The notes beneath the pieces are model-generated. The model did not search any database. It saw only the letters and a program-made list of their open reading frames with translations, and had not been told where the DNA came from. Made by a program: the position numbers and the translations under genes. DNA of 39,751 nucleotides, from contig QMPZ01000002.1 of assembly GCA_003648815.1 (NCBI GenBank), positions 1 through 39,751 on the forward strand. The letters are read 5' to 3'. This DNA comes from Candidatus Aerophobota bacterium (lineage in GTDB: Bacteria > Aerophobota > Aerophobia > Aerophobales > B47-G16). The stretch's first letter is position 1. Each line of letters begins with the position of its first letter. This document shows positions 17,332 to 33,610 of this stretch, piece after piece.

Positions 17332-17359
17332 TTGACTAAACGCTAAAGTTCGCTAAAAT
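17332..17359 (+). promoter_or_regulatory. candidate sigma70 promoter of the AAA+/VWA cassette (TTGACT-16-TAAAAT)
   Basis: TTGACT 17332-17337 and TAAAAT 17354-17359. The spacer carries a direct repeat CGCTAAA (17341-17347, 17351-17357). It lies in the 121-nt gap after coaBC. Confidence 0.55.
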
Positions 17360-17397
17360 TATAGTGGTAAGAATTACCGTCTCCTTCCTAAAAGAAG

Positions 17398-17961
17398 ATG
17401 GCAAAGTATATCGTCAGGACAGGAAAAGGTAGAACTTTCCTGTTTCTGGTAAAAAGAAAAAATGAGCTTATAGGGCATATCGACTATGACTTCATCCTGA
17501 GAGGAGGAATCCTTCCCGTAAGATCTAAGATAATGGCCTGTGGAAAGATAGCGGGATGGGTTGAGACCTTTTACCCCTCGATTTCCTGCATCAGGGTCTA
17601 CAACAAGAGAAGAGAAGAGGTCGCCTATCTGGAAAGATCTAACAGGTTAAGAATAGACGGTGTATATGTTTCGTTTAGCAGGCTATCCAAGGAGGAGACG
17701 ATTCTCGTTGAGGAAAGGGAGGGGAGGGGAAAGCTCAAGGAAAGGCTGGAAAAAACAGGTTTAACACATTCTTACCTCCTCGAGGACTCAAAGATTAAGG
17801 GAAGGGTCTATTGCTTTGCCAGAGAGAGCGATATATCCACCCTTCTTTATACCAGCACTGACATTGAAGCTGGCATCGATGAGCTTTTGCGGTTTTTACC
17901 CTTAGCCATAGCGAGGAGAGTCTTCGAGCAGGAGTTCATAAGGAGGTTTATGGGAAGATAG
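17398..17961 (+). CDS. hypothetical protein (ORFan A); free-standing paralog of the N-terminal domain of the AAA+ ATPase at 18957
   Basis: 187-aa ORF with no recognisable motif. By-eye collinear similarity to residues 1-175 of the downstream ATPase (see findings). No strong SD. Confidence 0.65.
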   Translation: MAKYIVRTGKGRTFLFLVKRKNELIGHIDYDFILRGGILPVRSKIMACGKIAGWVETFYPSISCIRVYNKRREEVAYLERSNRLRIDGVYVSFSRLSKEETILVEEREGRGKLKERLEKTGLTHSYLLEDSKIKGRVYCFARESDISTLLYTSTDIEAGIDELLRFLPLAIARRVFEQEFIRRFMGR

Positions 17962-17977
17962 CTTCCCTTGAGCAAAG

Positions 17978-18922
17978 ATGAAGATAAAGGAACTTCATGA
18001 TGAGTTAGGGGAAGGTATAGGCGTATATATAGACAGCAAGTTTTTTGAGATAAGGATAAAGGAAGCTTGTCAGTCAAGAATCTACGGAGATGATAGCGAC
18101 TGCCGGGCAATCATATGGGTTGAAAGCGGCAGAAAAATCTATAGATATTTTAAAGTATTTACCGAGAGAATTACCCGTCTCTTTGAGATAAGCATCAAGG
18201 ATAAAGAAGAGGATTTTATCAGATATTTGAGCAGGGGCTTTGAAAAGAGCTTCGGACCCGGAAGAATGAGGATAAATCCGACTTATAAGGGATTGGAGGA
18301 ACTAAGGAAATATGCTGCCAGAAAGGCTATAAAATATGGCCTTCTGACAGAGGTGCTCGGCTGGGCCACTCTTATGATAGCTACCTGTGCGGATCTTAAG
18401 GTTATGGCGGTGATTATGGGCTTTTATTTCGTATTCGGAGATGTCATTTGTGGTCTTCTCGTTTCCTGGTTAGCTGATCTGGGCACATTTACCTCTCCTT
18501 TCTTTCAGATTGGTGCCTTTCCTGCGGGAAGGCGTCTCTTGAAAAGATATATCTCACTCAATGAAGGCCTGTTAGCTCATTTTAAGAGAAGGGGGAAAAG
18601 AATAAAGGGGCTTGAGGAAAGATTTTTAAAAACGCAGGATGATGTAGAAAAAAAGTCATCTTTGAGTAGACTCTTGGAAAGAGAAAACGAGAGGTTAGCT
18701 AAGGAATGGGAACCTGTGGCTCTGTCCTTCGCAAAATGCAACGAGTTCAAGGGACTCATCGTGGAGTATAAGGGAAGATATCGGGATTCCTTTGCCTTTT
18801 GCAATTACATAGTCAACGGAATAGAACCTGAGGGGGAGGAACTGGACGTATGGCACATCCCGATAGAGGGACCGGAGGAGGAAGGGGAAGGAAGCGATTT
18901 TGATAAGATCTGGGAGGAATGA
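17978..18922 (+). CDS. hypothetical membrane protein (ORFan B): soluble N-domain, two adjacent TM helices, charged coiled-coil-like segment, acidic tail
   Basis: Hydrophobic hairpin LLTEVLGWATLMIATCADL / VMAVIMGFYFVFGDVICGLLVSWLA (about nt 18341-18475). KRRGKRIKGLEERFLKTQDDVEKK...ERENERLAKEWE segment. C-terminal EGPEEEGEGSDFDKIWEE. Confidence 0.65.
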   Translation: MKIKELHDELGEGIGVYIDSKFFEIRIKEACQSRIYGDDSDCRAIIWVESGRKIYRYFKVFTERITRLFEISIKDKEEDFIRYLSRGFEKSFGPGRMRINPTYKGLEELRKYAARKAIKYGLLTEVLGWATLMIATCADLKVMAVIMGFYFVFGDVICGLLVSWLADLGTFTSPFFQIGAFPAGRRLLKRYISLNEGLLAHFKRRGKRIKGLEERFLKTQDDVEKKSSLSRLLERENERLAKEWEPVALSFAKCNEFKGLIVEYKGRYRDSFAFCNYIVNGIEPEGEELDVWHIPIEGPEEEGEGSDFDKIWEE

Positions 18923-18956
18923 ATGCGGTCAAAAATAGCAAAGGGGGAAGGTAAAG

Positions 18957-20384
18957 ATGAAAAGATGCATAGTGGAGTTTAAGGAAAAATCTGCTCTGAT
19001 CAAGGACCTTTCCTCGGAAAAGATGATAAAGCTGGATTTTCCTCCTCTTACGGAGAAGATATATCTTCCTGTGCATTACCATATAGATATGGTCGAAGGA
19101 GCTCATCTGAAGAGGATTGGTAGGTTGAGCGTCTGGATGGCTGAAAACTACCCCATAGAGGATTATCACATAAGGATGGTGAGTCGCAACAGGACAACAT
19201 ATCTATCCTTCAAGGATGAGCAGACCTTAGTTCTCAAGTCAGCATCCGACGTCTACGAGATAATGGTCATCGACGAGCGAAAACTGAACAGAAGGCAAAG
19301 GGAAAAGCTTAAGAAAAACGGCTTCTTTAAGGGCTATGACATCAAAAGGAACGTAAGTGTGGGAAGTTTTTATCTCTTCAGGAAGGAGTCCAGGATCAGA
19401 GGACTTCTGGAGATAGAGGAGGCATTTGACCTTCTCGACTTTCTTTCCTTAATCGTGCTGGACAGGTTAATGGAGGAACTGAAGGACAAGGAGGCTAAGG
19501 TCTCCAAGTCCGTTGAGGTGCCGAAGGAGGCTAAGGAAGGAAGGTACAGGAACTTTGTCCTCCTGAACTACCCGGTCAACAGGGTAACTGAAGCTGTGGA
19601 GTACGTGGATCAAAGGGGGGAGTGGGAGCTCTTCTGTGAACTGATGGATAAGGGAAAGCCCGTGCTTTTGAACGGACCGACTGGCTGTGGAAAGAGCACG
19701 ATGATCAAGTACTACGCTTATATAAATAACCTGCCCTTTTATATGTCTCCCACCGGAAACAGGGAAACGACCATGGATGACATAGTTGGCTCCTGGGTTC
19801 CTGCTGATCCAAAGCCCATAAAGGCGCCAGGAGCTTTGATTTTAGCTATGGTCCACAATGGCATATTCTACTTTGAGGAGATAGGGCCCGTGGATCCCGG
19901 TGTACTGTACGGCCTGCACGGCGTTCTGGATGACAGAAAAATAACGGTTCAGTCACAGTATGGGTTTGAGGTCATCGAAGGGGGAGAAAATTTTAAGATA
20001 GTCTCCTCGGGAAACCTGGACAGCAAATATACCTCCATTGAGCTCAGCGATGCCTTTCTCGAGAGGTGGGCTCAGATAAGGATGGATTATCCGGACAAGG
20101 AAGGCACCATCAAGATACTAAAGTCAAGGGCACCCAAGGTGGATGATAAGATAGCCGAGATGATAACCGATTTACTTTTTGACTTCAGAGAGGTGCTGAA
20201 GGGCTATAGAAGAGATATGGGACTCAGAGGAGCTGTTGAGGTCTGTCAGGCAGCTCAAAACGCCAACCAACCCCTCAAGAAGCTGATAGAAGTACATATG
20301 CTCAACCCGAAGTCCACCTATGAGAGCGATAGGACCCTGTACAAGAAACTGATGGAGAAGATCGACAAGAGAGTGAGGAGGTGA
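18957..20384 (+). CDS. AAA+ ATPase, AAA_5 / CbbQ-NorQ-GvpN (MoxR-related) type, with about 205-aa N-terminal extension
   Basis: Walker A GPTGCGKS (19674-19697). Walker B-like IFYFEEIG (EE at 19875-19880). Sensor-1 SSGN. LSDAFLERWAQIRMDYPDKEGTIKIL (Arg finger / YP...E..IL signature of the CbbQ/NorQ group). Sensor-2 GLRGA. AAGGGGGAAGG RBS. Confidence 0.85.
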   Translation: MKRCIVEFKEKSALIKDLSSEKMIKLDFPPLTEKIYLPVHYHIDMVEGAHLKRIGRLSVWMAENYPIEDYHIRMVSRNRTTYLSFKDEQTLVLKSASDVYEIMVIDERKLNRRQREKLKKNGFFKGYDIKRNVSVGSFYLFRKESRIRGLLEIEEAFDLLDFLSLIVLDRLMEELKDKEAKVSKSVEVPKEAKEGRYRNFVLLNYPVNRVTEAVEYVDQRGEWELFCELMDKGKPVLLNGPTGCGKSTMIKYYAYINNLPFYMSPTGNRETTMDDIVGSWVPADPKPIKAPGALILAMVHNGIFYFEEIGPVDPGVLYGLHGVLDDRKITVQSQYGFEVIEGGENFKIVSSGNLDSKYTSIELSDAFLERWAQIRMDYPDKEGTIKILKSRAPKVDDKIAEMITDLLFDFREVLKGYRRDMGLRGAVEVCQAAQNANQPLKKLIEVHMLNPKSTYESDRTLYKKLMEKIDKRVRR

Positions 20385-20390
20385 TAAGAG

Positions 20391-22409
20391 GTGGCCAATT
20401 GTGAAAAGATAAGAGAGGAGCTTAAAAGAATAGTGGATTTTAGAATAGGTGAAGGAGCGAGCAGAAGACATCCTCTCATTTTCAATAAGAGGACTTTCCT
20501 TCCCGCTCTCACCGGAGCGGCCATCTTTACCGATGGTGAGAAGATATATCTTCCCCTTCAGTTTAGTCTTTGCCGGGATGAGTCGGACAATCAGATGATG
20601 GTCGCCAACGCGGTAAGGCATGAGTCGGACCATATAAAGGAGTTCATCAAGCTACACAGAAAAATAAGCGGTTCTGATAAGTACAACCCCAAGTATGTAA
20701 ATCGATTCTTGGAGGATTTCTTTCTTCAGGACCACTTCAGGGAAAATTCCACCCTTGCCCATGAGATATTCAACATAGTCGAGGACAACAGGATAGACCG
20801 CAGGGCCAGAGAGGAACTTCCTGGACTGAGGCGGTTTTCAGAGGAGAAGGAAAGACGAGTGTATCTTTCCAGACGGCCAAGTCCGAAGTATTTGCTGAAG
20901 AAGGGAAGGAAGCTGGACGCCTTCAGGGAGTTCTTCTTAGAGAAGACCCTGCTCGATGAGACCGTTGACGAGGTACCTGAGGAGTATCAGAAGCTTTTGA
21001 AGGAATGCGTGGATATTGCTCGATCAGCTGAGGGTAAGGACATTTATGCTTCCTTTGCCGCGACCAAGAAGATCTATGACAAGTTCAAGGAAAACTTTGA
21101 CATAAAGGGGCCGATGACTTCCCTTCCCCCCTTTGGTGGCCGGGGTCATGATAAGATGTATCCCGGTATTCCGAGAAGGTACAGGGGTTCTGTAAAGCCA
21201 GGGGAAGGAAGAGGAGAAGAGGAAAGGAAGGCCGGACAGGGGGAAGGAGAGAAGATAAAAAAGGAAGAAAATAGAAAGGAGGGGATGAGAAGTTCTGAGG
21301 AGGCCAAGGAGATTGAGCGGGAAAAGGAGATGAGAAGAGAGGACCAAGCTAAGGCAGACAGGGAAAAGAAAGGAAGAGAAAAGGGGCAGAGAAAGGAAGA
21401 GGGAAAGAGAGAAAAGAGAAAAGAGGGGGAAGGTGAGCAGGATGAAAAAGAGAAATCCTTCAGGGACCAGATGGATGAAGGAAAGAGAACTGAGAAAAGA
21501 AGTGAAGATTTAAATAGCAGATATGATCCTCATAGAAGCAGACCCCTCATTAGACTGGTGCCGAAGCCAACTCCTGGGGTAAACTTAAAAGTTCCCAAAC
21601 CCTCTCTTTACGATGTGAGGGAATCGCAGAGGATAATAAATAAGTACGATGGTGAGATCAGGGCTATTGAAAGTTATTTTAAGAAGCTGGAGGAAAGATA
21701 TCGGGGAAAGAAGATGGCAAAGGAGGGGGAGGAGATAGATATAGGGGAGTATGTGCAGGCGGAGTTAGAATATGAGGCCACGGGGGTAAGGCCGGCGAAA
21801 AAGAAGATATTCCGGAAGAGAGCCCCTGTTAAGAGGAAGGTAGCCTGGGCGATATTAGCTGATATAAGTGCCTCTACGGGATTCGGGTTCGGATACAGGG
21901 TAATTGATTCCATCAAGGAAGCTCTCCTGATCCAGGGAGAAGCACTGAGCTATTCGGGTTATCCCTTTGGCATCTTCGCCTTCCACTCGGGTGGGAATAC
22001 CTTGAGGGAACTGATGGAATACAAGGATACAGTGTATGTGATAAAGGATTTCGGGGAGGATTACACCCCTGAGAACAGGGCAAGGGTGATGTCTCTTTAT
22101 CCCTACGGAGGGACGTTGATGGTGAATGCGATAAAGTATGTGTCCGACAAGCTCAAGAAAATAGAGGGCAGACCAAAGGGTCTGTCCATAATAACTGATG
22201 GAGAACCGGACGTTCCGGAAGAGGTGAGAGCTCTCCTCCAGAAACTGCCGGAGGATGGAATTCTTCCCTTCCTGTTCGTCATCGGCTCAGAGCACGAGAA
22301 GTTTGCCAGGTCACTTATGTCTGAGTACGTGATCATAAAGAAAGACAAAATAAAGGAGCTACCGAATGAGGTGCTGAGAATATTTACCACCTATGGAATT
22401 ATGAAATAA
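20391..22409 (+). CDS. NorD/CbbO/CobT-like VWA (MIDAS) protein with N-terminal HExxH metallopeptidase-like region and K/E/R-rich linker
   Basis: GTG start 10 nt after GAGGAGG. FTDGEKIYLP...RHESDHI (HExxH at 20619-20633). Pre-VWA segment EGEEIDIGEYVQAELE...KRKVAWAILADISASTG with MIDAS DxSxS (21861-21875), GGT (T575) and ITDGEPD (D603). Confidence 0.85.
   Translation: MANCEKIREELKRIVDFRIGEGASRRHPLIFNKRTFLPALTGAAIFTDGEKIYLPLQFSLCRDESDNQMMVANAVRHESDHIKEFIKLHRKISGSDKYNPKYVNRFLEDFFLQDHFRENSTLAHEIFNIVEDNRIDRRAREELPGLRRFSEEKERRVYLSRRPSPKYLLKKGRKLDAFREFFLEKTLLDETVDEVPEEYQKLLKECVDIARSAEGKDIYASFAATKKIYDKFKENFDIKGPMTSLPPFGGRGHDKMYPGIPRRYRGSVKPGEGRGEEERKAGQGEGEKIKKEENRKEGMRSSEEAKEIEREKEMRREDQAKADREKKGREKGQRKEEGKREKRKEGEGEQDEKEKSFRDQMDEGKRTEKRSEDLNSRYDPHRSRPLIRLVPKPTPGVNLKVPKPSLYDVRESQRIINKYDGEIRAIESYFKKLEERYRGKKMAKEGEEIDIGEYVQAELEYEATGVRPAKKKIFRKRAPVKRKVAWAILADISASTGFGFGYRVIDSIKEALLIQGEALSYSGYPFGIFAFHSGGNTLRELMEYKDTVYVIKDFGEDYTPENRARVMSLYPYGGTLMVNAIKYVSDKLKKIEGRPKGLSIITDGEPDVPEEVRALLQKLPEDGILPFLFVIGSEHEKFARSLMSEYVIIKKDKIKELPNEVLRIFTTYGIMK
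21192..21512 (+). repeat. purine-rich low-complexity tract encoding a K/E/R/G polyampholyte linker (aa about 268-374 of the VWA protein)
   Basis: Coding strand is almost exclusively A/G, with uninterrupted homopurine runs at 21200-21231 (32 nt), 21360-21386 (27 nt) and 21388-21433 (46 nt). No exact tandem unit. Confidence 0.85.
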
Positions 22410-22430: not shown

Positions 22431-23363
22431 ATGAACAAAAAAAGGATTGCCTTGTGGATGGTGTTGGCAATCATCTTTATATGGCTCCTGTCCGGGATGT
22501 ATATCGTTCATCCAAATGAGGAGGGAGTGGTAAGGCGCTGGGGTAAATATACGGTTTCTACGGGTCCCGGAATGCATTATCACATTCCATGGCCTGTGGA
22601 AAGGGTAGATAAGGTAGCGGTGACCAAAATTGAGAAGATGGAGATCGGCTACCGGACGATAAAGAAGGGTCCTCCAGCAATTTATGAGCCTGTGGAGGAG
22701 GAAGCTTTAATGCTGACAGGGGACATGAACATAGTCGAGCTATGGTTCATAGTTCAATACAGGATTAAGGATGCTAAAAAATATCTTTTTAACATCAGAG
22801 GTCCTCAACAGATGATAAAGGATGCCGCAGAGGCATCGATGAGGCAGGTCGTCGGGGACAGAGGCGTTGACGAGGCATTGACCATTGGCAAGGAGGAAAT
22901 CCAGGAAGCTGTGGCGGAAAAACTTCAGGAGATTCTGGACTTGTACGAAAGCGGCATAGAGGTGGTTACGGTGAAGCTACAGGATGTTCATCCTCCTGGA
23001 GAGGTGAAGGCGGCCTTTGAGGCGGTTGCAAGTGCAAAGGAGACCAGAGAGCGATTGGTCAACGAAGCCCTGGGAAAATATAATCAGGAGATTCCCAGAG
23101 CTAAGGGTGAGGCGGAGAAGATAATAAGGCAGGCAGAGGCATACGCTGTGGAGAGGATAAGACGTGCTGAAGGCGATGCAAATAGATTCTTGGCCAGGCT
23201 GAGGGAATACAGAAAGGCCAAACAGGTTACGAAGGACAGGCTGTATCTCGAGACGATGCGGGAGATTCTGCCCGACATCGAAAAGATAGTTATACCTGAG
23301 GAGGAAGGGTTCATAAAGTTCTTGAACCTTAGGGGGAAAGGTTTGGAAGGTTCATCCAAGTGA
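22431..23363 (+). CDS. hflK: FtsH protease activity modulator HflK (SPFH domain)
   Basis: N-terminal TM helix, EEGVVRRWGKY...PGMHYHIPWP, SPFH core and a C-terminal coiled coil. Precedes hflC as usual. Confidence 0.88.
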   Translation: MNKKRIALWMVLAIIFIWLLSGMYIVHPNEEGVVRRWGKYTVSTGPGMHYHIPWPVERVDKVAVTKIEKMEIGYRTIKKGPPAIYEPVEEEALMLTGDMNIVELWFIVQYRIKDAKKYLFNIRGPQQMIKDAAEASMRQVVGDRGVDEALTIGKEEIQEAVAEKLQEILDLYESGIEVVTVKLQDVHPPGEVKAAFEAVASAKETRERLVNEALGKYNQEIPRAKGEAEKIIRQAEAYAVERIRRAEGDANRFLARLREYRKAKQVTKDRLYLETMREILPDIEKIVIPEEEGFIKFLNLRGKGLEGSSK

Positions 23364-23374
23364 GGTGAAAAGAC

Positions 23375-24307
23375 ATGAGCAAATTGAGAATAATTGAATT
23401 TATCATAGCCATAATCGGTCTTCTCACGCTTAACAGTGCCCTTTTTACGGTTGACGAGACAAATCAGGTGGTGGTCACTCAGCTTGGGAAACCGATTAAG
23501 GTGATAAAAGAGCCGGGTCTATACGTGAAGATTCCCTTTATTCAAAAGGCGAACAAATTTGAGGATAGGCTATTGGGCTATGATGTGGAGGCAAGAAGGT
23601 GCGTTACCAAGGACAAAAAGTACATCTTCCTCAACAACTACGCCAGATGGAGGATAGTCGATCCACTTTTATTTATGAAGACGGTGAGAAACGAGGCAGG
23701 AGCGCAGGCAAGACTGGACGATATAATTTACGCTGCTGTAAGGACTGAGGTGGGAAAGCACAATTTCATAGATGTCTTGAGGACCTCAAATAGAAAGATG
23801 TTGGCAGTAGAGCCTCTTCTGAAAAGGGAAAAAGAGGAAGAGAAGGTGGAGGTGGGAAGGGAAAAGATAATGCTCGATGCTACAAGGAGAGCTAATCAGA
23901 TAGCTAAGAGGTACGGGATAAAGGTAGTGGATGTGAGGATAAAGAGGGCGGACCTGCCCGAGGCAAACACCCATGCCGTATTTGCCAGGATGAAGGCGGA
24001 AAGAGAGAGAATATCAAATAGATATATATCCGAGGGAGAAGGGGAAAGGGCAAAGATATTAGGGGAAATGGAAAAGGAGCTGGCACGGATTCGCGCGGAG
24101 GCTTACAAGACAGCTCAACAGATAAAGGGAAAAGCAGATGCCACAGCCACCAGGATCTACGCAGAGGCTTACAAACAGGATCCGGATTTCTTTAATTTCC
24201 TGAAGACCCTCGAGACCTATAAGGAGACACTTCCGAAGAAGACAACAATTGTGGTTCCCTTAAGTTCAAAGTTCTTCAAGTATCTCACTCCAGAGGAGGA
24301 AGAGTAA
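23375..24307 (+). CDS. hflC: FtsH protease activity modulator HflC (SPFH domain)
   Basis: TM helix, VDETNQVVVTQLGKPIKVIKEPGLYVKIPFIQ, RIKRADLPE, ERERIS. Confidence 0.88.
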   Translation: MSKLRIIEFIIAIIGLLTLNSALFTVDETNQVVVTQLGKPIKVIKEPGLYVKIPFIQKANKFEDRLLGYDVEARRCVTKDKKYIFLNNYARWRIVDPLLFMKTVRNEAGAQARLDDIIYAAVRTEVGKHNFIDVLRTSNRKMLAVEPLLKREKEEEKVEVGREKIMLDATRRANQIAKRYGIKVVDVRIKRADLPEANTHAVFARMKAERERISNRYISEGEGERAKILGEMEKELARIRAEAYKTAQQIKGKADATATRIYAEAYKQDPDFFNFLKTLETYKETLPKKTTIVVPLSSKFFKYLTPEEEE

Positions 24308-24327: not shown

Positions 24328-24972
24328 ATGAAGAAAGGGCTGTTCATAAGCTTTGAGGGAATAGATAAAAGTGGAAAGAGCACGCAGATATCCCTCCTGG
24401 CGGACTATCTTAAGAGGAGAGGATATGAGGTGCTCACGACGTGTGAGCCTGGGGGAACTGAATTGGGGAAAATAATCAAGGAGGTGCTTCTTTCACCTTC
24501 CCTTGATGGTATGAGCAGGATCAGTGAGCTCTTCTTATATTTGGCTGATAGAAGAGAACATGTGGAAAAGGTGATCAAACCAGCTTTGAGAGGTGGAAAG
24601 GTGGTAATCTCTGATCGTTTTGTCGATGCCTCCGTTGCTTATCAGGGTTATGGAAGAGGAATAAGCATAAGCTGGATCGAGGATTTGAACAAAATAGTCA
24701 CAGGCGGGATCTTGCCGGACATTACCTTTCTCTTGGATATAAGCCCATCTTTAGCCAAGGAGCGGTCTGAGAAGAAGGACAGGATGGAAAGGGAAGATAC
24801 AAAATTTTATGAGAAGGTGCGCCAGGGATATCTTGAGATTGCCAAATCCTTTCCGGACAGAATCCGCATAATCAAAGCAACTCGAGGAGTTTGGGAGATT
24901 TTCTCAGAGGTTAAAAAAGAAATTTCTAAGTACTTAGATAAAGGACAAAAGGAATGTCGTTCCAAGACATAA
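24328..24972 (+). CDS. tmk: dTMP (thymidylate) kinase
   Basis: FISFEGIDKSGKSTQ P-loop, DRF, LID region. Confidence 0.93.
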   Translation: MKKGLFISFEGIDKSGKSTQISLLADYLKRRGYEVLTTCEPGGTELGKIIKEVLLSPSLDGMSRISELFLYLADRREHVEKVIKPALRGGKVVISDRFVDASVAYQGYGRGISISWIEDLNKIVTGGILPDITFLLDISPSLAKERSEKKDRMEREDTKFYEKVRQGYLEIAKSFPDRIRIIKATRGVWEIFSEVKKEISKYLDKGQKECRSKT

Positions 24973-26129: not shown

Positions 26130-26996
26130 ATGAAGATTACCGGCAGGACAAAGGTAGTAGGAGTAATTGGTCATCCTATCTCTCATTCTCTTTCGCCTAT
26201 CTTCCATAATGCTGCGTTTGAGTACTTAGGGCTCGACTTCGTCTACGTACCATTTTCAGTAAGGCCAGAGGAACTAAAGACAGCCCTCAGGGCAGTGAGG
26301 GCTTTAAATATAGTCGGAATTAACGTCACCGTACCCTTCAAGGAGAAGGTTATATCTTATCTTGATGAGCTTTCTCCAGAGGCAAGCTCGATCGGAGCAG
26401 TGAATACCATCTCGAATGAAGATGGCAAATTAGTTGGCTATAACACAGATGAAGAAGGGTTCATAAGGTCACTGACCCGAGAGGGAAAATTCGACCCTGA
26501 GGGAAAGAGCGTTCTTCTCTTAGGAGCAGGAGGCGCCGCTTATGCGATTTCTTTCGCCCTGATCAAGGCGGGGATAAAAAAGCTTGTGCTCACCAATCGA
26601 ACCGAGGAGAAGGCAAGGAGATTGTTATCTCATCTACGGAAATTTTTTAAGGATAAATGCGAGCTTTGCTTTCTCGAGTTTTCCCGGAGAAACTCCCCTG
26701 AGGTCATGCGCAAGGTGGATTTGTTCGTCAATGCTACCTCGGTGGGTATGCGTCCGGATGACCCGGTGCTGATTAAACCGCATCTTTTTCCCCAAAACAC
26801 CTTTGTCTATGATATCGTCTATAATCGAGAGACGGAGATACTTCGAGCGGCCAAAAAAAGGGGGCTTTCGTGTATGGGTGGGCTTGATATGCTTATTTAT
26901 CAGGGAGCTCTTTCCTTCGAGATCTGGACCCATCAAAGGGCACCTGTAGAGATAATGAGAAAAGCACTGAAGGAGAAAGGATGCTGCGTTATCTGA
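26130..26996 (+). CDS. aroE: shikimate dehydrogenase
   Basis: VVGVIGHPISHSLSP, NVTVPFK, GAVNT, LLGAGGAA. Confidence 0.93.
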   Translation: MKITGRTKVVGVIGHPISHSLSPIFHNAAFEYLGLDFVYVPFSVRPEELKTALRAVRALNIVGINVTVPFKEKVISYLDELSPEASSIGAVNTISNEDGKLVGYNTDEEGFIRSLTREGKFDPEGKSVLLLGAGGAAYAISFALIKAGIKKLVLTNRTEEKARRLLSHLRKFFKDKCELCFLEFSRRNSPEVMRKVDLFVNATSVGMRPDDPVLIKPHLFPQNTFVYDIVYNRETEILRAAKKRGLSCMGGLDMLIYQGALSFEIWTHQRAPVEIMRKALKEKGCCVI

Positions 26997-28150
26997 CCGC
27001 CGGAGAGTCTCACGGTAGGGCTTTAATTGCCATCTTAGAGGGGATACCCGCAGGCTTAAAACTTACCGCGGAGGACATCGATAAGGATCTGGCCCGTCGC
27101 AAGGTGGGTTATGGTCGTGGGGATAGAATGAAAATTGAGAAGGACAAAGTTAAAATTCTTTCCGGGGTTCGTCATGGCAGGACCCTTGGCAGTCCCATCG
27201 CTTTGATGATTGAAAATCTTGACTGGCAAAACTGGCATAAGATAATGAAGGTGGAAGAAGATGAGGTTTCCTTAAGAGAAACTACTCCGGTGACGAATCC
27301 CCGACCAGGCCATGCGGACCTGACAGGGGCAATTAAGCGTAACCTGAAGGACGTAAGAGACGTGCTGGAGCGGGCCAGCGCCCGGGAGACAGCTGTCCGT
27401 GTGGCAGTGGGGGCAATCTGCAAGAAGTTCCTTCGACAGTTCAACATTTCCTTTTACAGCCGGGTGCTCCAAATCGGGTCGGTAAGGGATAGGAGTGACT
27501 GGCACCTTGCAGTCGAGAACTATCAGTTGGTTGAAAGCTCCCCTTTGCGTTGTCTGGATAAAGAAGCTGAGAAAAAGATGATTTCCTTGATCGACAGGAC
27601 AAGGGAAAAAGGCGATAGTCTTGGCGGGATATTTGAGGTCATCGCCACTGGTCTTCCCCCTGGTCTGGGAGATTACGTTCAATGGGACCTTAAACTGGAT
27701 GCTCAATTGGCCAGGGCGATGATGAGCATCCAGGCCATTGTGGGAGTGGAGATTGGACTGGGATTTGCCGCTGCGGAAAGACTTGGCTCTGAGGTGCAGG
27801 ATGAGATATTCTACGATCACGAGGAAGGAAAGTTTTATCGAGGAACGAATAACCTCGGTGGCATAGAAGGGGGTATGAGCAATGGAGAGCCGATAATCCT
27901 GCGAGCAGCTATGAAGCCGATATCTACCCTCAGAAGGCCTCTTCGCTCGGTGAACCTCCTCACCAAGGAAAAGGTGAGAGCAACTAAGGAAAGATCTGAT
28001 ATCTGTGCTGTTCCAGCAGCCTCGGTGATCGCAGAAGCAGTGGTTGCTTTTGAGATTGCTAAAGCTGTGCGGGAAAAGTTCGGAGGGGACAGCGTGGAGG
28101 AGGCAAGAAGAAACTACATAAGTTATATGGATTATGTCAAGAGGTTTTAG
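26981..28150 (+). CDS. aroC: chorismate synthase
   Basis: LTAGESHG, RPGHAD, GGxSNGEPI and RSDxCAVPAA motifs. Overlaps aroE by 16 nt. Confidence 0.95.
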   Translation: MLRYLTAGESHGRALIAILEGIPAGLKLTAEDIDKDLARRKVGYGRGDRMKIEKDKVKILSGVRHGRTLGSPIALMIENLDWQNWHKIMKVEEDEVSLRETTPVTNPRPGHADLTGAIKRNLKDVRDVLERASARETAVRVAVGAICKKFLRQFNISFYSRVLQIGSVRDRSDWHLAVENYQLVESSPLRCLDKEAEKKMISLIDRTREKGDSLGGIFEVIATGLPPGLGDYVQWDLKLDAQLARAMMSIQAIVGVEIGLGFAAAERLGSEVQDEIFYDHEEGKFYRGTNNLGGIEGGMSNGEPIILRAAMKPISTLRRPLRSVNLLTKEKVRATKERSDICAVPAASVIAEAVVAFEIAKAVREKFGGDSVEEARRNYISYMDYVKRF

Positions 28151-28157
28151 AGGATAA

Positions 28158-28670
28158 ATGAACATCGTGCTGATTGGCTTTATGGGGACGGGAAAGAGTG
28201 CGGTGGGAAGAAAATTGGCAAAAAAGTTGGGAATGAGGTATCTTGACACGGATCAGATGATCGAGGAAAGGGAAAGATGCAGGATCTTTAAGATATTTCA
28301 GGAAAAGGGAGAGGAGTACTTTCGCCAGGTAGAATCCCGGCTGATCAAGGAGGTTGCCTTGCGCGATAACTGCGTAATCGCCACAGGAGGAGGGGTGGTC
28401 TTAAGAGAGGAAAATATGCTCGCCCTGAGGAAAAATGGCCTTATCATCTGCCTTTCAGCAGATCCGGAGACGATATGGAAGAGGACGGAAAACGATCAGG
28501 AGCGACCTCTTCTAAAGTGCAAAGATCCAAAGAGAAGAATTGAAAAGCTGCTTAAGATGCGCAAACCTTACTATCAGAAGGCAGATTTTACCATCGATAC
28601 CTCCAGGTTAACCGACGAGGAGGTAGCAGAGAGGATAATCGAGGTCCTCAGGAAGGAAAAATGGATATAG
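28158..28670 (+). CDS. aroK: shikimate kinase
   Basis: IVLIGFMGTGKS P-loop, DTD, ATGGG. 170 aa. Confidence 0.93.
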   Translation: MNIVLIGFMGTGKSAVGRKLAKKLGMRYLDTDQMIEERERCRIFKIFQEKGEEYFRQVESRLIKEVALRDNCVIATGGGVVLREENMLALRKNGLIICLSADPETIWKRTENDQERPLLKCKDPKRRIEKLLKMRKPYYQKADFTIDTSRLTDEEVAERIIEVLRKEKWI

Positions 28671-29749
28671 TTGAGGTTAACTTAGGCAGGCGCAGCTATC
28701 CTGTCTACATAGGGGGCAGACTTAAGGATATTGGCAAGATAGCCAGTACATTTTCTATAGGAAAGAAGGTTTTAATCATCAGTAGTGATCGCATCTTTAG
28801 CCTTTATGGAGATATGGTAAGGGATGCCCTCAGCGCCTCAGGGTTCGATGTTTATCTGGCAAGAATTCCAGAAGGGGAAAGATACAAGTCCTTAACGTGG
28901 GCCTCAAGACTGTATGCTCGGTGTCTTGAGGTGAAGCTGGATCGGTCCTCCACCATCCTTGCCCTCGGAGGAGGAGTGATAGGAGATTTAGCCGGGTTTG
29001 TTGCCTCCACTTTTCTGAGGGGAATAAACTTCGTCGTCGTTCCCACCACCTTGTTGGCCCAGGTGGATGCCAGCGTGGGAGGTAAGGTGGCGGTGAATCT
29101 TCCTCAGGGTAAGAACTTAGTTGGCTCTTTTTATCAACCGAACTTTGTCTACATTGATCTTGCGGTCCTTGCCAGCCTTCGTCCAAGGGAGATCAGGTCC
29201 GGATTAGCTGAGGTGGTAAAATATGGAATGATAGAGGATAAGGAGCTTTTTTCCTTCTTAGAGAAAAACTCGGCCAGGATAAAGAGGTTGGATGAGGAAA
29301 CCCTTCATTTCATAGTGAGCCGGTCGGTAAAGATTAAGGCCAAGGTAGTGGAGGAGGACGAGAGGGAGGAGAAGGGGAGAAGGCAAATTTTAAACTTCGG
29401 GCATACCATCGGTCATGCCATTGAGGCGACAGCTGGATACAGAAGCTACAGACATGGGGAGGCCGTGGCCATAGGGATGGTGGCGGCGGCAAGGCTTTCC
29501 CTGAGGATGAAATCTTTTCCTTTAAGTTCTTTTGTAAGGCTGAAAAGTCTTTTAGAGAGATTAAATTTACCTGTTGCACTAAGAAAAGGAATAGATACAG
29601 ATGAGCTTTATAACACCTTATACCTGGATAAAAAGGTGAGGGGTGGCAGACTTCATTTCGTCCTTCCAAAGGATATAGGTAGCGTGTTCCTCACCAAAGA
29701 TGTTCCTTCTCCCTTGATAAGGAAGGTTTTAAAGGAGCTTGCGGAATGA
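28661..29749 (+). CDS. aroB: 3-dehydroquinate synthase
   Basis: LGGGVIGDLAGFVAS, VPTTLLAQVDASVGGK, NFGHTIGHA. Confidence 0.93.
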   Translation: MDIVEVNLGRRSYPVYIGGRLKDIGKIASTFSIGKKVLIISSDRIFSLYGDMVRDALSASGFDVYLARIPEGERYKSLTWASRLYARCLEVKLDRSSTILALGGGVIGDLAGFVASTFLRGINFVVVPTTLLAQVDASVGGKVAVNLPQGKNLVGSFYQPNFVYIDLAVLASLRPREIRSGLAEVVKYGMIEDKELFSFLEKNSARIKRLDEETLHFIVSRSVKIKAKVVEEDEREEKGRRQILNFGHTIGHAIEATAGYRSYRHGEAVAIGMVAAARLSLRMKSFPLSSFVRLKSLLERLNLPVALRKGIDTDELYNTLYLDKKVRGGRLHFVLPKDIGSVFLTKDVPSPLIRKVLKELAE

Positions 29750-30195
29750 TGCATATACTGGTAATTCATGGGCCGAATCTTAATCTATTGGGCACAAGGG
29801 AAACGCATATTTACGGAAAGACTACTCTTGGGCAAATTAATCAGATGATCGAGGAAAAAGCAAAACAGCTGAGCTGCGAGGTGAGGATCCGACAATCAAA
29901 CAGTGAAGGGGAAATCGTCTCCCTTATTGGGGAGAGCAGAGGTTGGGCAGATGGAATTATAATTAACCCCGCCTCCTACACTCATACCAGCATCGCCATA
30001 AGGGATGCTATTCTGGCCGTCGACGTTCCCACTATAGAGGTTCACCTGTCAAATATCTATGAGAGGGAGCCATTTCGACAGAAATCCATGATAGCCGGAG
30101 TCTGTGTAGGGCAGATAAGTGGATTCGGTCCGAACAGTTATCTTTTGGCTCTCGAGGCGATGGTGGAGACTTTAAAGAAAGAATCTTCGAGGTAA
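29746..30195 (+). CDS. aroQ: type II 3-dehydroquinate dehydratase
   Basis: ILVIHGPNLNLLGTRETHIYG, INPASYTHTS, EVHLSNI. ATGA overlap with aroB. Confidence 0.95.
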   Translation: MMHILVIHGPNLNLLGTRETHIYGKTTLGQINQMIEEKAKQLSCEVRIRQSNSEGEIVSLIGESRGWADGIIINPASYTHTSIAIRDAILAVDVPTIEVHLSNIYEREPFRQKSMIAGVCVGQISGFGPNSYLLALEAMVETLKKESSR

Positions 30196-30199
30196 TAAA

Positions 30200-31261
30200 A
30201 TGGATCTGAAAAAACTGCGTGAGGAAATCGATGAGATTGATTCAAAGCTTCTGGAGCTTTTGAACAGGCGAGCGGAGAAGGTTCTGGAAGTTGCTCGAGC
30301 TAAGAGCAGGGCAAAGAAAAGCTATTATTCTCCGGGAAGGGAAAAGAGGATACTGATGCGCCTGATCAGGGAGAACAAGGGTCCCTTGCCTAAGGAGGCA
30401 TTGGAGGAGATCTTCCATCTTATCCTTAAGACTTCCTTGGCCTTGGAGAAGAAGCTGAGGGTTGGCTATCTGGGTCCTCCAGCGACCTTCACCCATCAGG
30501 CGGCACTCAAAGCATTTGGTAAGGGGGCAGAATTTGTCCCCATGAGGAGCATTGGCCAGATCTTCACCGAGGTGGAAAAGAATCAAGTTGATTTTGGTGT
30601 TGTGCCTGTGGAGAACTCAACCGAGGGCGTGGTCAGCCATACCCTGGATATGTTTCTGGACTCAAGTCTGAAGATCTGTTCTGAAATCATTCTGGAGATC
30701 TCTCATCATCTTTTGGGCAGGGGAGAGCTTAAGAATATAACCAAGGTTTACTCCCATTCCCAGGCCCTTGCCCAGTGTCAGAACTGGCTTGAGGAGAACC
30801 TGCCAAAGGCAAAGTTGATCGAGGTCGAAAGTACAGCAAGGGCAGCTCAAAAAGCCGTAAAGGAGGCAAATTCTGCTGCCATTGCCTCTGATGTGGCTGC
30901 TTCCCTTTATCGCCTGAGGGTGTTGGCTTCTCACATTGAGGATAGGGCGAATAACTACACCCGATTTTTTGTCATCGGTAGGAGTTACGCGGAAAGATGT
31001 GGAAATGATAAGACCTCGATTCTCTTTTCCATCAAGGACAGGGTAGGTGCACTCTATGATATGCTCTCTCCTTTTCGCAAGCAGGGGATTAACTTGACCA
31101 AGATTGAGTCCCGACCGACCAAGAAAAGGCCATGGGAGTATGTCTTCTTCGTCGATTTTATTGGTCACAAGGATGATGAGCCGGTAAAAAAGGCCTTATC
31201 TGAACTTGAGGAAAAGTGTCTGTTTTTAAGGGTTTTAGGTTCTTATCCCCGGGAGGAATAA
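30200..31261 (+). CDS. pheA: bifunctional chorismate mutase / prephenate dehydratase (with ACT domain)
   Basis: N-terminal CM helix [23 protein letters not shown] domain ([21 protein letters not shown]), ACT region with TKIESRPTK. Confidence 0.92.
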
Positions 31262-31265
31262 GACA

Positions 31266-32279
31266 ATGATAATTACCTTAAAGCCCGGAACCACGAAAAA
31301 GGGGGTGGAGCAGGTAATTCAAAAGGTCAAGGAGTTAGGTTTTACTCCCCACATCTCAAAGGGTACTGAGAGGACGATAATCGGTGTGATTGGTGAGAAT
31401 CCTATCCGCACGCGTGAGATATTCGAAGCCATGTTTATCGTGGAATCCGTCACGCCGATCTCCAAGCCCTATAAGCTGGTCAGCCGGGAGTTTAAGGGGA
31501 AGGATACGGTTGTCAAGGTAAAAGATGTTAAGATTGGAGGAAAAAAGGTTGTGATCATCGCTGGCCCCTGTTCGGTGGAGGGCAGGGAAGTTCTTGTTGA
31601 GATTGCCCAAAAGGTCAAGGAGGCGGGGGCAGGCTTGCTCCGAGGTGGGGCCTTCAAACCTCGCACCTCTCCTTACTCCTTCCAGGGCTTGGGAAAAGAG
31701 GGTCTGAAGTATTTAGCTGAGGCAAGCAAGGCCACAGGACTTCCCGTGGTGACCGAGGCGATGGATCCAAGGCAGGTGGAGCTGGTATCCCAATACGCTG
31801 ATGTTATCCAGATTGGAGCACGAAATATGCAAAACTTTGACCTCTTGAAGGAGGTAGGAAGAAGTGACAAGCCAGTTCTTCTCAAGAGAGGAATGGCCTC
31901 CACGATAAAGGAGCTTTTGATGTCAGCGGAATACATTTTGTCCCGGGGCAATGAAAACGTCATTCTTTGCGAGAGGGGGATAAGGACATTTGAGGATGCT
32001 ACTCGCTTCACCCTTGATCTTTCTGCAGTCCCCCTGATAAAGAGGTTAAGTCATCTTCCTGTCATCGTAGATCCCAGTCACGGAACAGGGAAAAGGGAGC
32101 TTATCCGCCCTATGTCCAGGGCAGCTATAGCTGCCGGAGGGGATGGTTTGATGATTGAGGTACATCCCAGGCCTGAGAAGGCACTATCGGATGGTTTTCA
32201 ATCGATAGTTCCGGATGAATTTCAGCAAGTGGTAAAGGAGGTAAGTTTGGTGGCAAAGGCGGTGGGAAGGGATGTTTAA
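31266..32279 (+). CDS. aroF: 3-deoxy-7-phosphoheptulonate (DAHP) synthase, type I-beta with N-terminal ferredoxin-like regulatory domain
   Basis: About 65-aa N-terminal extension ([26 protein letters not shown]...), then [33 protein letters not shown]. Confidence 0.9.
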
Positions 32280-32296
32280 ACTCACTGAATAAATAA

Positions 32297-33610
32297 ATGG
32301 TTTTGAAGATGTCAGCTAACTATATCTACGTAAATCCGGTAAAACAGCTGAGAGGAGAGATTTATCTACCCGGAGATAAATCGATTTCCCATAGGGCTCT
32401 CATCCTCACCTCCATTGCTAAAGGGAAATCCCTTATCAAGGGGATGCAAAGGGGCAGGGATTGTCTGGCTACCCTTAAGGCAATGAAAGCGATGGGGGTG
32501 GAAGTCGAGGAAAATCGGGATGGTTTGGTTGTTCACGGTCGGGGACCTGATGGACTGAAGGAGCCGGAGAACGTCCTTTATTGTGAAAATTCCGGCACGA
32601 CGATGCGCCTTCTGGCAGGGCTTCTTTCTGGACAAAGCTTTTATAGCGTTCTTTCGGGTGATGAGTATCTGACAAAAAGGCCTATGAGGAGAATAACTGA
32701 GCCCTTGAGAAGGATGGGAGCACAGGTGTTTGGAAGAAAAAACGGTCAGTTTCCCCCCTTAAGCATCTTGGGTGGAAACCTTAAGGGAATGGATTACTCT
32801 CTTCCCGTTCCTTCAGCACAGGTAAAGTCATGTTTACTTTTAGCCGGACTTTATGCCGATGGTAAGATTTGTCTGACTGAGCCTTGTAGATCCCGCGATC
32901 ATACGGAGCGTATGCTTAAGTTCTTAGGAGCCGAGATCGAGGTGAATGGCTTAAGGATTAGGCTGAAGGGAGGCAGTTTCCCCTCGGCAGGAAAAATATT
33001 TGTTCCCGGGGATATCTCATCTGCCTCCTTCTTCATCGGCGCTGCCTCACTCTTAAAAGGATCGAAGATAAAGATTTTGAACGTTGGCTTGAATCCCACG
33101 CGAAGGGGATTTGTAGAGGCTTTGCTTCGGATGGGGGCGGACATAAGAATTACCCGCATGGAGAAAAGATGTGAAGAGGAAGTAGGAGATCTGGAAATAA
33201 GAGGGAAGGATAGCTTGAAAGGAATAGTTGTAGAGGGGGAAACTATCCCCCAGCTAATCGATGAGATTCCTATATTGGCTGTGGTAGGCTGTTTTGCCGA
33301 AGGAGAGACGGTCATCAAGGACGCTCAGGAGCTAAGGGTTAAGGAGACGGATCGAATCAAGGCCACGGTTACTGAATTAAAAAAGATGGGTGCCGATATC
33401 GAGGAAAGAGATGATGGGATGATAATCAGGGGGAAAGGAAAGCTAAAAGGCGCAGAATGTAACAGCTACGGGGACCATCGAATGGCCATGGCCTTGGCCG
33501 TTGCTGGCCTGTGTGCTAAGGGAAAAACTAAGATTTTAAATCCTGAATGTGTCGCCATATCTTTTCCTGAATTCTGGGACATCCTTGGAAAACTCACAGC
33601 TGCTGGATGA
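32297..33610 (+). CDS. aroA: 3-phosphoshikimate 1-carboxyvinyltransferase (EPSP synthase)
   Basis: LPGDKSISHRALIL, NSGTTMRLL, KETDR, GDHRMAMA. The start could be ATG 32309 instead, and neither has a clear SD. Confidence 0.93.
   Translation: MVLKMSANYIYVNPVKQLRGEIYLPGDKSISHRALILTSIAKGKSLIKGMQRGRDCLATLKAMKAMGVEVEENRDGLVVHGRGPDGLKEPENVLYCENSGTTMRLLAGLLSGQSFYSVLSGDEYLTKRPMRRITEPLRRMGAQVFGRKNGQFPPLSILGGNLKGMDYSLPVPSAQVKSCLLLAGLYADGKICLTEPCRSRDHTERMLKFLGAEIEVNGLRIRLKGGSFPSAGKIFVPGDISSASFFIGAASLLKGSKIKILNVGLNPTRRGFVEALLRMGADIRITRMEKRCEEEVGDLEIRGKDSLKGIVVEGETIPQLIDEIPILAVVGCFAEGETVIKDAQELRVKETDRIKATVTELKKMGADIEERDDGMIIRGKGKLKGAECNSYGDHRMAMALAVAGLCAKGKTKILNPECVAISFPEFWDILGKLTAAG

Follow-up and report, generated by a model that had tools for sequence, protein, structure and literature searches.

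The cassette described here occupies positions 17332-22409 of a stretch of 39,751 nucleotides (nt), referred to below as the window, with which contig QMPZ01000002.1 from a Candidatus Aerophobetes bacterium begins. It consists of four genes, A to D, of which C encodes an AAA+ ATPase and D a protein ending in a VWA domain; the public names of all four products are 'hypothetical protein' or 'AAA family ATPase'. Our results are best explained if the cassette represents, in Aerophobetes, a small undescribed family of AAA+/VWA remodelling machines similar to NorQ/NorD and CbbQ/CbbO. NorQ/NorD is the chaperone for FeB insertion into nitric oxide (NO) reductase (PDB 9qh4-9qhg; 2026 cryo-electron microscopy study, PMC13036017), and its close relative CbbQ/CbbO is a Rubisco activase. 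The motor of the family is familiar, while the receptor-like domain and a peptide tag common to arrays of partner proteins are new. We propose, with moderate confidence, that this NorQ/NorD-type motor is addressed to proteins carrying the tag in their C-terminal tail, and that B is a membrane-anchored tagged partner situated beside HflKC. In the literature no description of such a system was found.

The proposal depends most of all on the tail, for which we derived the position-specific consensus [IF][IP][ND]PW[DE][IV][DE]IP[KE][IL]. Among open reading frames (ORFs) of at least 80 amino acids (aa) inside the systems and on the same strand as the core genes, 94 of 255 have [DN][PV]W in their last 45 aa; of the 475 in other parts of these loci, none has it. 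The median distance between the start of the motif and the C-terminus is 19 residues, and some tails contain the motif twice. Every sufficiently complete locus has between one and 14 adjacent tail genes, and in the archaea there are 14 in locus L041, nine each in L048 and L020, and six in L043; ORFs of the related loci were called mechanically, some of their starts being over-extended, and these counts may be off by one or two. In the locus from the Candidate Phyla Radiation (CPR), four small proteins adjoining the core end in NPWEPVDIP...INPWEKK. An archaeal example of the tail is FINPWDIQIPKLG, to which aa 285-314 are the counterpart in B. In the Woesearchaeota locus L023 (252-3206), four adjacent genes have a double tail with a conserved cysteine, [IV]DPWCELEE ... 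[IV]DPW[VT]KLE, which from its sequence appears to be a lineage-specific dialect of the tag.

Without their tails, the proteins belong to at least six unrelated multi-member families, together with singletons. The B family has 25 members from Aerophobetes and archaea. Other families comprise small membrane proteins with the motif YEWYRYEK, soluble proteins of 211-254 aa, and proteins of 330-383 aa with a signal-like N-terminus and transmembrane (TM) segments. Many of the tail proteins are membrane proteins, and in many a flexible S/P-rich linker precedes the tail. No Pfam family was matched by ten archaeal tail proteins at the thresholds used. Two known kinds of C-terminal signal were considered for the tail and rejected: a sorting signal of the sortase or exosortase type, as neither a TM helix nor a basic anchor follows the tail, and an encapsulin-type cargo peptide, as there is no shell gene.

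In the window, B is the only protein to bear the tail. Inside the B family, motif 1 of its tail aligns column for column with the archaeal xIDPWEVDIPEI / IDPWEVDIPEI, and where the tail regions of the 19 distinct Aerophobetes orthologs of B were displayed it is kept as [LM]D[VI]W[RH][IM].[IV] in 17, the other two having in the printed region a remnant of motif 2 and a long K/E-rich extension. Motif 2 is conserved in the Aerophobetes orthologs as DFD[KRQ][IV]W and parallels the second copies found elsewhere, which are INPWEKK in the CPR tails and DPWxKLE in L023. The body of B, over aa 52-240, is also homologous to archaeal tail proteins (for example L020 4437-5423 and L022 1818-2621). In two Aerophobetes loci, L015 (3553-4665) and L016 (7444-8559), B is about 55 aa longer, with a K/E-rich extension after the second Trp motif. 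B itself belongs to no Pfam, NCBIfam, PADLOC or PDB family, and eleven members of its family gave only scattered chance matches to Pfam at E<=10. A PDB match of the B family to the influenza HA2 coiled coil (E about 0.004) was attributed to coiled-coil composition and discarded.

An earlier note on this DNA, made from the sequence alone, had given B two TM helices and an acidic tail. The acidic tail is present; the helices appear as one hydrophobic stretch of a length compatible with a two-helix hairpin, and this stretch probably does form a TM hairpin, which would place both termini of B on the same, cytoplasmic side. The same note had found no recognisable client gene, a view that must now be revised, as B bears a tail common to between one and 14 neighbours in each locus from CPR bacteria or from archaea of the DPANN group. 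Because its C-terminal peptide is shared with neighbouring genes in related loci, B and its analogues would be the prime candidates for client or adaptor.

The second new component is the N-terminal domain of C, which is β-rich and specific to the family, and of which A is a free-standing paralog. A matches C aa 1-200 by BLASTP (E 6e-8), and when eleven A orthologs were compared with ten C N-domains by hhalign the two families aligned over 161 columns (probability 97.2%, E 3.9e-11). This domain is absent from NorQ, CbbQ and GvpN, and the solved NorQ and CbbQ chains (268-281 aa, with one CbbQ of 380 aa) align to C aa 209-452 only. The AlphaFold2 (AF2) model of A (predicted local distance difference test, pLDDT, 88.9; predicted template modelling score, pTM, 0.86) contains 13 strands and a long C-terminal helix and has no match at E<=1e-3 in the PDB or in BFVD, which holds predicted viral structures. 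Its best PDB match is weak, being to the tubby domain of TULP1 (3c5n_A; probability 0.85, TM-score 0.41, E 0.048), and uncharacterised proteins of giant viruses match it with TM-scores of 0.42-0.48; no sequence match supports a tubby-like identity for either A or the C N-domain, and the fold is left unassigned here. A falls in none of the families of Pfam, NCBIfam or PADLOC, eleven A orthologs gave only scattered chance matches to Pfam at E<=10, and a profile search of the PDB with the A family returned nothing meaningful. The earlier note was right to place A and B outside the characterised families, although A, which it counted with B as one of two ORFans, is a duplicate of the C N-domain. 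Orthologs of A occur in the CPR and DPANN loci also.

By its sequence C can be classed as a MoxR-type AAA_5 ATPase to which the β-rich domain has been added. It matches the Pfam model AAA_5 (PF07728) with 50.4 bits (cut-off 22) over aa 235-370, covering positions 1-138 of the 139 in the model, and its nearest solved relatives in the PDB are midasin (3e-25), CbbQ (9e-15) and NorQ (3.5e-13). The Walker A sequence GPTGxGK[ST], the sensor-1 N and the Arg finger are kept across lineages, and at sensor-2 there is an R, replaced in DPANN by K. All ten C sequences examined from Aerophobetes, CPR and DPANN have hhhhEE, not hhhhDE, as their Walker B; this conservative but non-canonical change is a signature of the family. 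With 475 aa, C departs from the compact single-module form of NorQ and CbbQ, which have about 270 aa. An identity as GvpN was also considered, but the score against TIGR02640 is 51.5 bits where the cut-off is 266.8, and the window contains no gvp gene.

D has the layout of NorD, namely an N-domain, a disordered linker, a finger, a MIDAS VWA domain (one with a metal-ion-dependent adhesion site) and a conserved C-terminus, and in addition an invariant HExxH. Its C-terminal half matches NorD by phmmer (6.8e-10), by profile (3.1e-13) and by Foldseek (1.9e-14), with an identity of 22-24% over the VWA domain. The top six Foldseek matches of D are NorD chains (for the VWA domain 9qh6_G and 9qhd_G, E 1.9e-14), and these are followed by the MIDAS of MDN1 and Rea1. 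HMMER aligns D 421-608 to NorD 396-576 and the finger segment of D to NorD 396-440, which overlaps the NorD finger at residues 403-448, the NorD linker not seen in the structure being residues 242-393 (PMC13036017); for the same part of D, AF2 predicts a helical hairpin (H406-437 and H451-464). The MIDAS of D is complete (DxSxS...T...D, formed by D491, S493, S495, T575 and D603). In nine sequences from three phyla D491, S495, T496, G574 and D603 are invariant, while S493 is replaced by T in two members, both from DPANN, and T575 by I in one. The view of the earlier note that the cassette is an AAA+/VWA module of MoxR type was upheld, and the module is conserved.

The N-domain of D is less easily placed. 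The HExDH and NIVxDxRID columns are invariant in nine D sequences from three phyla, and in the AF2 model, where pLDDT is about 90, HExxH lies in a helix (64-93) with short strands before it and an invariant acidic helix after it. The Foldseek search with full-length D was dominated by VWA matches and left the fold of the N-domain unassigned, and a direct search against PDB sequences did not detect the N-domain. A profile of this domain matches the N-domains of many VWA/CobT_C-type proteins, and about a quarter of those listed retain HExxH within the aligned segment. Against Pfam at E<=10, nine D N-domains had only scattered chance matches, none of them to a peptidase or to PF13203, and full-length D had no match at E<=1 to PF13203 (putative metallopeptidase) or PF09967 (VWA-like). 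The likeness to zincins is limited to the HExxH motif and its helical context. In the linker, the counterpart of that unresolved in NorD, pLDDT falls below 50 over residues 261-300 and 321-395 (AF2). The linker is about 135 aa long in Aerophobetes and much shorter in the CPR and DPANN homologs. As the motor is proposed to stretch the equivalent linker in NorD (PMC13036017), the length of the D linker may set a working distance.

The distribution of the family was examined through gene neighbourhoods and two scans of sequence collections with D alignments, which gave 14 genome loci and 33 metagenome loci; the taxonomic labels of metagenome-assembled genomes (MAGs) were taken as given. The D family is tiny: of 1.84 billion proteins, no more than 12 cluster representatives match it at E<=1e-30. 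Every homolog that shares 68-81% identity with C is of Aerophobetes type; another group, about 40% identical, takes in a MAG of Nealsonbacteria (CPR). The trio of A, C and D is found again in one CPR MAG and in MAGs from Pacearchaeota, Woesearchaeota and other archaea. The order of the genes is D-A-x-C in CPR and C-x-D-A in archaea, whereas in Aerophobetes-type loci it is always A-B-C-D, and this difference in order between lineages argues for selection on co-occurrence. In CPR and DPANN the neighbours include SecY and the S5 ribosomal operon, SMC, EF-2, RNA polymerase A' (RpoA'), tRNA synthetases and smpB, and no Band_7 genes lie nearby. Of 260 pattern matches in viral contigs, none was confirmed as a relative. 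Six-gene units in which D has 60-67% identity were found in MAGs labelled 'Clostridia bacterium' (L010-L012, L015 and L016), and L020 is labelled 'Methanosarcinales' despite its DPANN-type locus; both labels are probably errors of binning or classification.

A, B, C and D co-occur in every related Aerophobetes locus, but the unit does not stop at the four genes that the earlier note named. Two Band_7 genes, hflK and hflC, follow D in all 16 Aerophobetes loci that reach past it, with gaps of 8-97 nt, and none of these loci has the flanks of the window (coaBC upstream, tmk downstream), at least five flank contexts being represented. Since the association persists despite such varied flanks, the conserved unit in Aerophobetes is six genes long, A-B-C-D-hflK-hflC. 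Together with the predicted TM hairpin of B, this invariable linkage agrees with the suggestion of the earlier note that the cassette is membrane-associated. In locus L008 (7176-9234, Aerophobetes) the gene directly after hflK-hflC belongs to the NfeD family, and a further Band_7 gene, the third, comes next; these make up a second SPFH/NfeD module.

The features of the cassette and of the two genes that follow it are collected in the table. The four ORFs, their coordinates and their spacing (16, 34 and 6 nt, with a gap of 121 nt between coaBC and A) were all as first described, and the identity of coaBC was upheld (TIGR00521, 459 bits). A TTGACT-16-TAAAAT promoter had also been named, and the element is indeed present; however, with 10 promoter-like matches in the region and 8.0 +/- 3.2 in shuffles there is no enrichment, so this element is only suggestive of a promoter. 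As no terminator-like site occurs in the 21 nt between D and hflK, the transcription unit probably runs past D into hflK-hflC. In the same-strand run from A through hflC to tmk and holB every gap is 34 nt or less, from which the unit may extend even beyond hflC; tmk and holB overlap by 19 nt (24954-24972). Further downstream (26130-33610) there is a near-complete shikimate/aromatic amino-acid block of aroE, aroC, aroK, aroB, a pheA-like gene, DAHP synthase and aroA, followed by panC, lpxB and msbA, all named by eye from their translations alone. The presence of lpxB and msbA suggests that the organism is probably diderm. When all ORFs of at least 170 aa in the window were read by eye, none was recognised as a nor, cbb, cox, gvp or chelatase gene, as had been stated earlier.

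Table. Positions in the window of the features of the cassette and of the two genes following it
Feature	Position	Strand	Remarks
Promoter-like element TTGACT-16-TAAAAT	17332..17359	+	upstream of A; consensus match 10/12
Gene A	17398..17961	+	187 aa
Gene B	17978..18922	+	314 aa
B hydrophobic stretch	18341..18481	+	aa 122-168, 47 aa; Kyte-Doolittle scan
B tail motif 1, LDVWHIPIE	18842..18868	+	aa 289-297; Aerophobetes variant of [DN][PV]W..IP
B tail motif 2, DFDKIWEE	18896..18919	+	aa 307-314; second Trp motif, very C-terminus
Gene C	18957..20384	+	475 aa, AAA_5
C N-terminal domain	18957..19500	+	aa 1 to about 180; paralogous to A
C AAA+ module	19569..20384	+	aa about 205-475; MoxR/AAA_5 type
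C Walker A, GPTGCGKS	19674-19700	+	
C Walker B-like, IFYFEE	19863-19886	+	aa 303-310
C Arg finger, within FLERW	20055-20069	+	
Gene D	20391..22409	+	672 aa, GTG start, MIDAS VWA
D N-terminal helical domain	20391..21176	+	aa 1-262
D HExDH motif, HESDH	20619-20633	+	invariant
D NIVxDxRID	20772-20798	+	invariant
D linker	21177..21590	+	aa 263-400; K/E-rich, predicted disordered
D 'finger' segment	21651..21785	+	aa 421-465; aligned to NorD finger region
D VWA domain	21843..22409	+	aa 485-672; conserved C-terminus ELPxEhhRhFxxYG
D MIDAS, DISAST	21861-21878	+	
D MIDAS, GGT	22107-22115	+	
D MIDAS, TDG	22194-22202	+	
hflK	22431..23363	+	21 nt after D; TIGR01933 273.6 bits (cut-off 159.4)
hflC	23375..24307	+	last of six-gene unit; TIGR01932 234.4 bits (cut-off 134.4)

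How such a machine could work may be sketched by analogy with NorQD (PMC13036017). C would form a hexamer with the finger of D in its pore and the C-terminus of D docked on the ring, and ATP hydrolysis would turn the VWA domain against the D N-domain, straining the linker of D and whatever D holds. The tail would be an address tag by which diverse proteins are brought to the motor, and its binding could serve their assembly, disassembly or extraction. Its form, in which hydrophobic and acidic residues alternate between bracketing prolines, would suit strand addition to a β-sheet, and its acidic residues might in addition provide the MIDAS metal with a ligand. The reader of the tail might be A, D or the N-domains on the C ring. 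As the C N-domain and A set the family apart from NorQD and co-occur strictly with the tails, they would be the most economical receptor candidates, and A, being this receptor domain in soluble form, would serve to deliver tails or to mask them. The MIDAS of D, which needs an acidic ligand, and the HExxH domain of D may be considered alternative readers. In the present organism the tagged partner would be the membrane protein B. Given the membrane hairpin of B and an operon that continues into hflKC, the machine would most likely act at the inner membrane, on its cytoplasmic face beside the HflKC scaffold.

Several observations weigh against this proposal. The tails have no acidic residue at a position fixed in all of them, which weakens the simple version in which the tail provides the MIDAS ligand. 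The Aerophobetes tail has V/I-W and not P-W, and with a K/E-rich extension in some B orthologs the tail is not always terminal. Because Walker B is hhhhEE in all lineages, the ATPase competence of C is an assumption. Finally, since the linkage to HflKC is absent in CPR and DPANN, the connection to a membrane scaffold may be lineage-specific.

An alternative that we consider unlikely is that the HExxH N-domain of D is an active zincin-like peptidase to which the AAA+/VWA machinery presents its substrate. It would cleave the tails from B and the other tail proteins, either maturing them or releasing a conserved C-terminal peptide. There is a precedent for this in the vWA-MoxR systems, some of which are coupled to a zincin-like peptidase whose cut sets a conserved C-terminal peptide free from a variable precursor (PMC7159879). 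The HExDH motif, the strands before it and the E/D-rich helix downstream are invariant across three phyla, related VWA proteins often retain HExxH in the same place, and flexible linkers stand before the tails. Yet neither a Pfam peptidase nor DUF2201_N was matched at E<=10, and no peptidase is among the top 50 Foldseek matches. The tail carriers, with 100-380 aa and in some cases bodies conserved between bacteria and archaea, are also unlike leader-type precursors, and no radical-SAM or other peptide-modifying gene is linked.

A further explanation is that the real client in Aerophobetes is HflKC and, by way of it, FtsH. The motor would then remodel or open the HflKC cage, with B as no more than a membrane adaptor that positions it. 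The constancy with which hflK-hflC follows D among differing flanks in the 16 assessable loci, the gaps of 8-97 nt, the lack of a terminator-like site before hflK and the membrane character of B are all consistent with this. However, the CPR and DPANN systems keep A, C, D and the tail proteins without Band_7 genes, which means that HflKC is not a client of the family as a whole, and neither HflK nor HflC has the tail motif. In E. coli the bulk of HflKC is on the periplasmic side, and if this holds here it would be away from a cytoplasmic ATPase. We judge this explanation improbable, to the same degree as cleavage of the tails by a peptidase.

The earlier note had allowed for a conflict module, and the cassette could be seen as a conflict or defence system of the vWA-MoxR type, in which the variable array of tail proteins provides diversifying effectors or sensors. 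Related loci differ strongly in how many tail genes they have, from one to 14, and in the kinds of these genes, with at least six families, and such turnover is typical of conflict systems by published criteria (PMC7159879). Several observations speak against this reading. PADLOC gives no more than a Walker-A-only match, and A, B and ten archaeal tail proteins have no Pfam match, hence no recognised VMAP, iSTAND, FtsH, propeller or effector. The VWA domain is the last part of D, with no effector fused to it, the neighbours are core housekeeping genes, and no viral contig is involved. Aerophobetes loci have an unvarying content that includes one B only, and the hosts are CPR, DPANN and Aerophobetes rather than the multicellular lineages in which such systems concentrate. 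A role in conflict thus appears very unlikely.

Least probable of all is a chaperone of the classical NorQD or CbbQO kind, dedicated to activation or metal insertion, whose client would have its gene in another part of the genome, with A and B as accessories. NorQ, CbbQ and NorD are the closest solved relatives and the HExxH of D could bind a metal for delivery, but neither the 39.7-kb window nor, as far as was noticed, any of 56 related loci (of which selected flanks were annotated and the rest covered by called genes and Pfam labels) offers a nor, cbb, cox, gvp or chelatase gene. The cassette was never seen embedded in a nor, cbb or cox locus, and the strictly linked tail-tagged genes make a more economical set of clients. 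Respiratory and carbon-fixation enzymes are, moreover, generally reduced in CPR and DPANN genomes.

If a motor addressed to tail-tagged proteins is accepted as the preferred reading, a broader one can be put forward more tentatively. The DPW tag ([ND]PW[DE][IV][DE]IP) might be a general address code that guides as many as 14 proteins of a locus, membrane and soluble ones unrelated to each other, to a single NorQ/NorD-like motor. The receptor would be a new domain carried by the ATPase and existing also in free form as A. This would be a new system for targeting and assembly (or extraction), shared horizontally by Aerophobetes, CPR and DPANN, and it may build or remodel a membrane-associated structure of importance to ultra-small cells. 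The cassette is among the few multi-gene modules that a free-living candidate phylum has in common with CPR bacteria and DPANN archaea, and its position beside core housekeeping genes in very small genomes suggests a cell-biological role. For most MoxR/VWA pairs the client is either not known or known by genetics alone, and even for NorQD and CbbQO target recognition is an open question. Here the genomes themselves have apparently labelled the partners with a conserved and easily synthesised peptide, which makes recognition directly testable, and the tail may show how machines of this type choose their targets. The fixed association with hflKC in Aerophobetes also gives a new angle on SPFH proteins and FtsH in membrane quality control.

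Comparison with known systems helps to define what is shared and what is particular to the family. As in NorQ/NorD and CbbQ/CbbO, a gene for an AAA_5 MoxR-type ATPase adjoins that of a VWA partner. D has its parts in the order of NorD, with a disordered linker of roughly 135-150 aa, and the best sequence and structure matches of C and D are to proteins of these two pairs. The mechanics (finger in the pore, torsion on the linker) are likely to be the same. Unlike NorQ and CbbQ, however, C has an N-terminal domain of 180 aa that is also encoded separately as A, and a Walker B with EE in place of DE; unlike NorD, D has an N-domain with an invariant HExxH. In place of a nor or cbb client there are one to 14 linked genes with a common C-terminal peptide. 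C and D are therefore members of the MoxR/AAA_5 and NorD/CbbO-type VWA classes but not NorQD, CbbQO or GvpN proper, considering that a client operon is missing, that C has the extra N-domain and a non-canonical Walker B, and that its GvpN score is low.

The vWA-MoxR ternary conflict systems (Kaur, Burroughs, Iyer and Aravind 2020, PMC7159879) are similar in having a MoxR and vWA core with extra conserved partners, and some of them are paired with a zincin-like peptidase and with proteins conserved only in a C-terminal peptide. That peptide is of the FxSxx, RxD or acidic type, whereas here it is DPW..IP. The present family differs further in its lack of VMAP, iSTAND, FtsH, β-propeller or effector, as judged from the absence of Pfam matches and assuming that Pfam models for these exist. 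Its tail carriers are sizeable and many are membrane proteins, its genes lie in a housekeeping context, and its hosts are CPR, DPANN and Aerophobetes.

Midasin (Rea1), which is the best AAA+ sequence match of C (E 3e-25) and whose MIDAS in MDN1/Rea1 comes next after NorD for D, offers a parallel in concept. The ring of this eukaryotic AAA+ protein is the docking place of the protein's own MIDAS domain, to which the ubiquitin-like (UBL) domains of assembly factors bind, so that one motor removes several factors having a common recognition element. It differs in being a single chain of 4,700-4,900 residues with six AAA modules, and in recognising a folded UBL domain and not a short C-terminal peptide. 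Short terminal peptides are read by other AAA+ systems, among them the p97/Cdc48 N-domain with its cofactor motifs, HbYX tails and ssrA-type tags. MoxR-class ATPases are not known to thread substrates, and in the present family the VWA partner is expected in the pore. The analogy to the p97, HbYX and ssrA-type systems is functional only, with no sequence or fold relationship shown; what would be shared is a short linear peptide on unrelated proteins, read by an N-domain that is accessory to a hexameric AAA+ ring.

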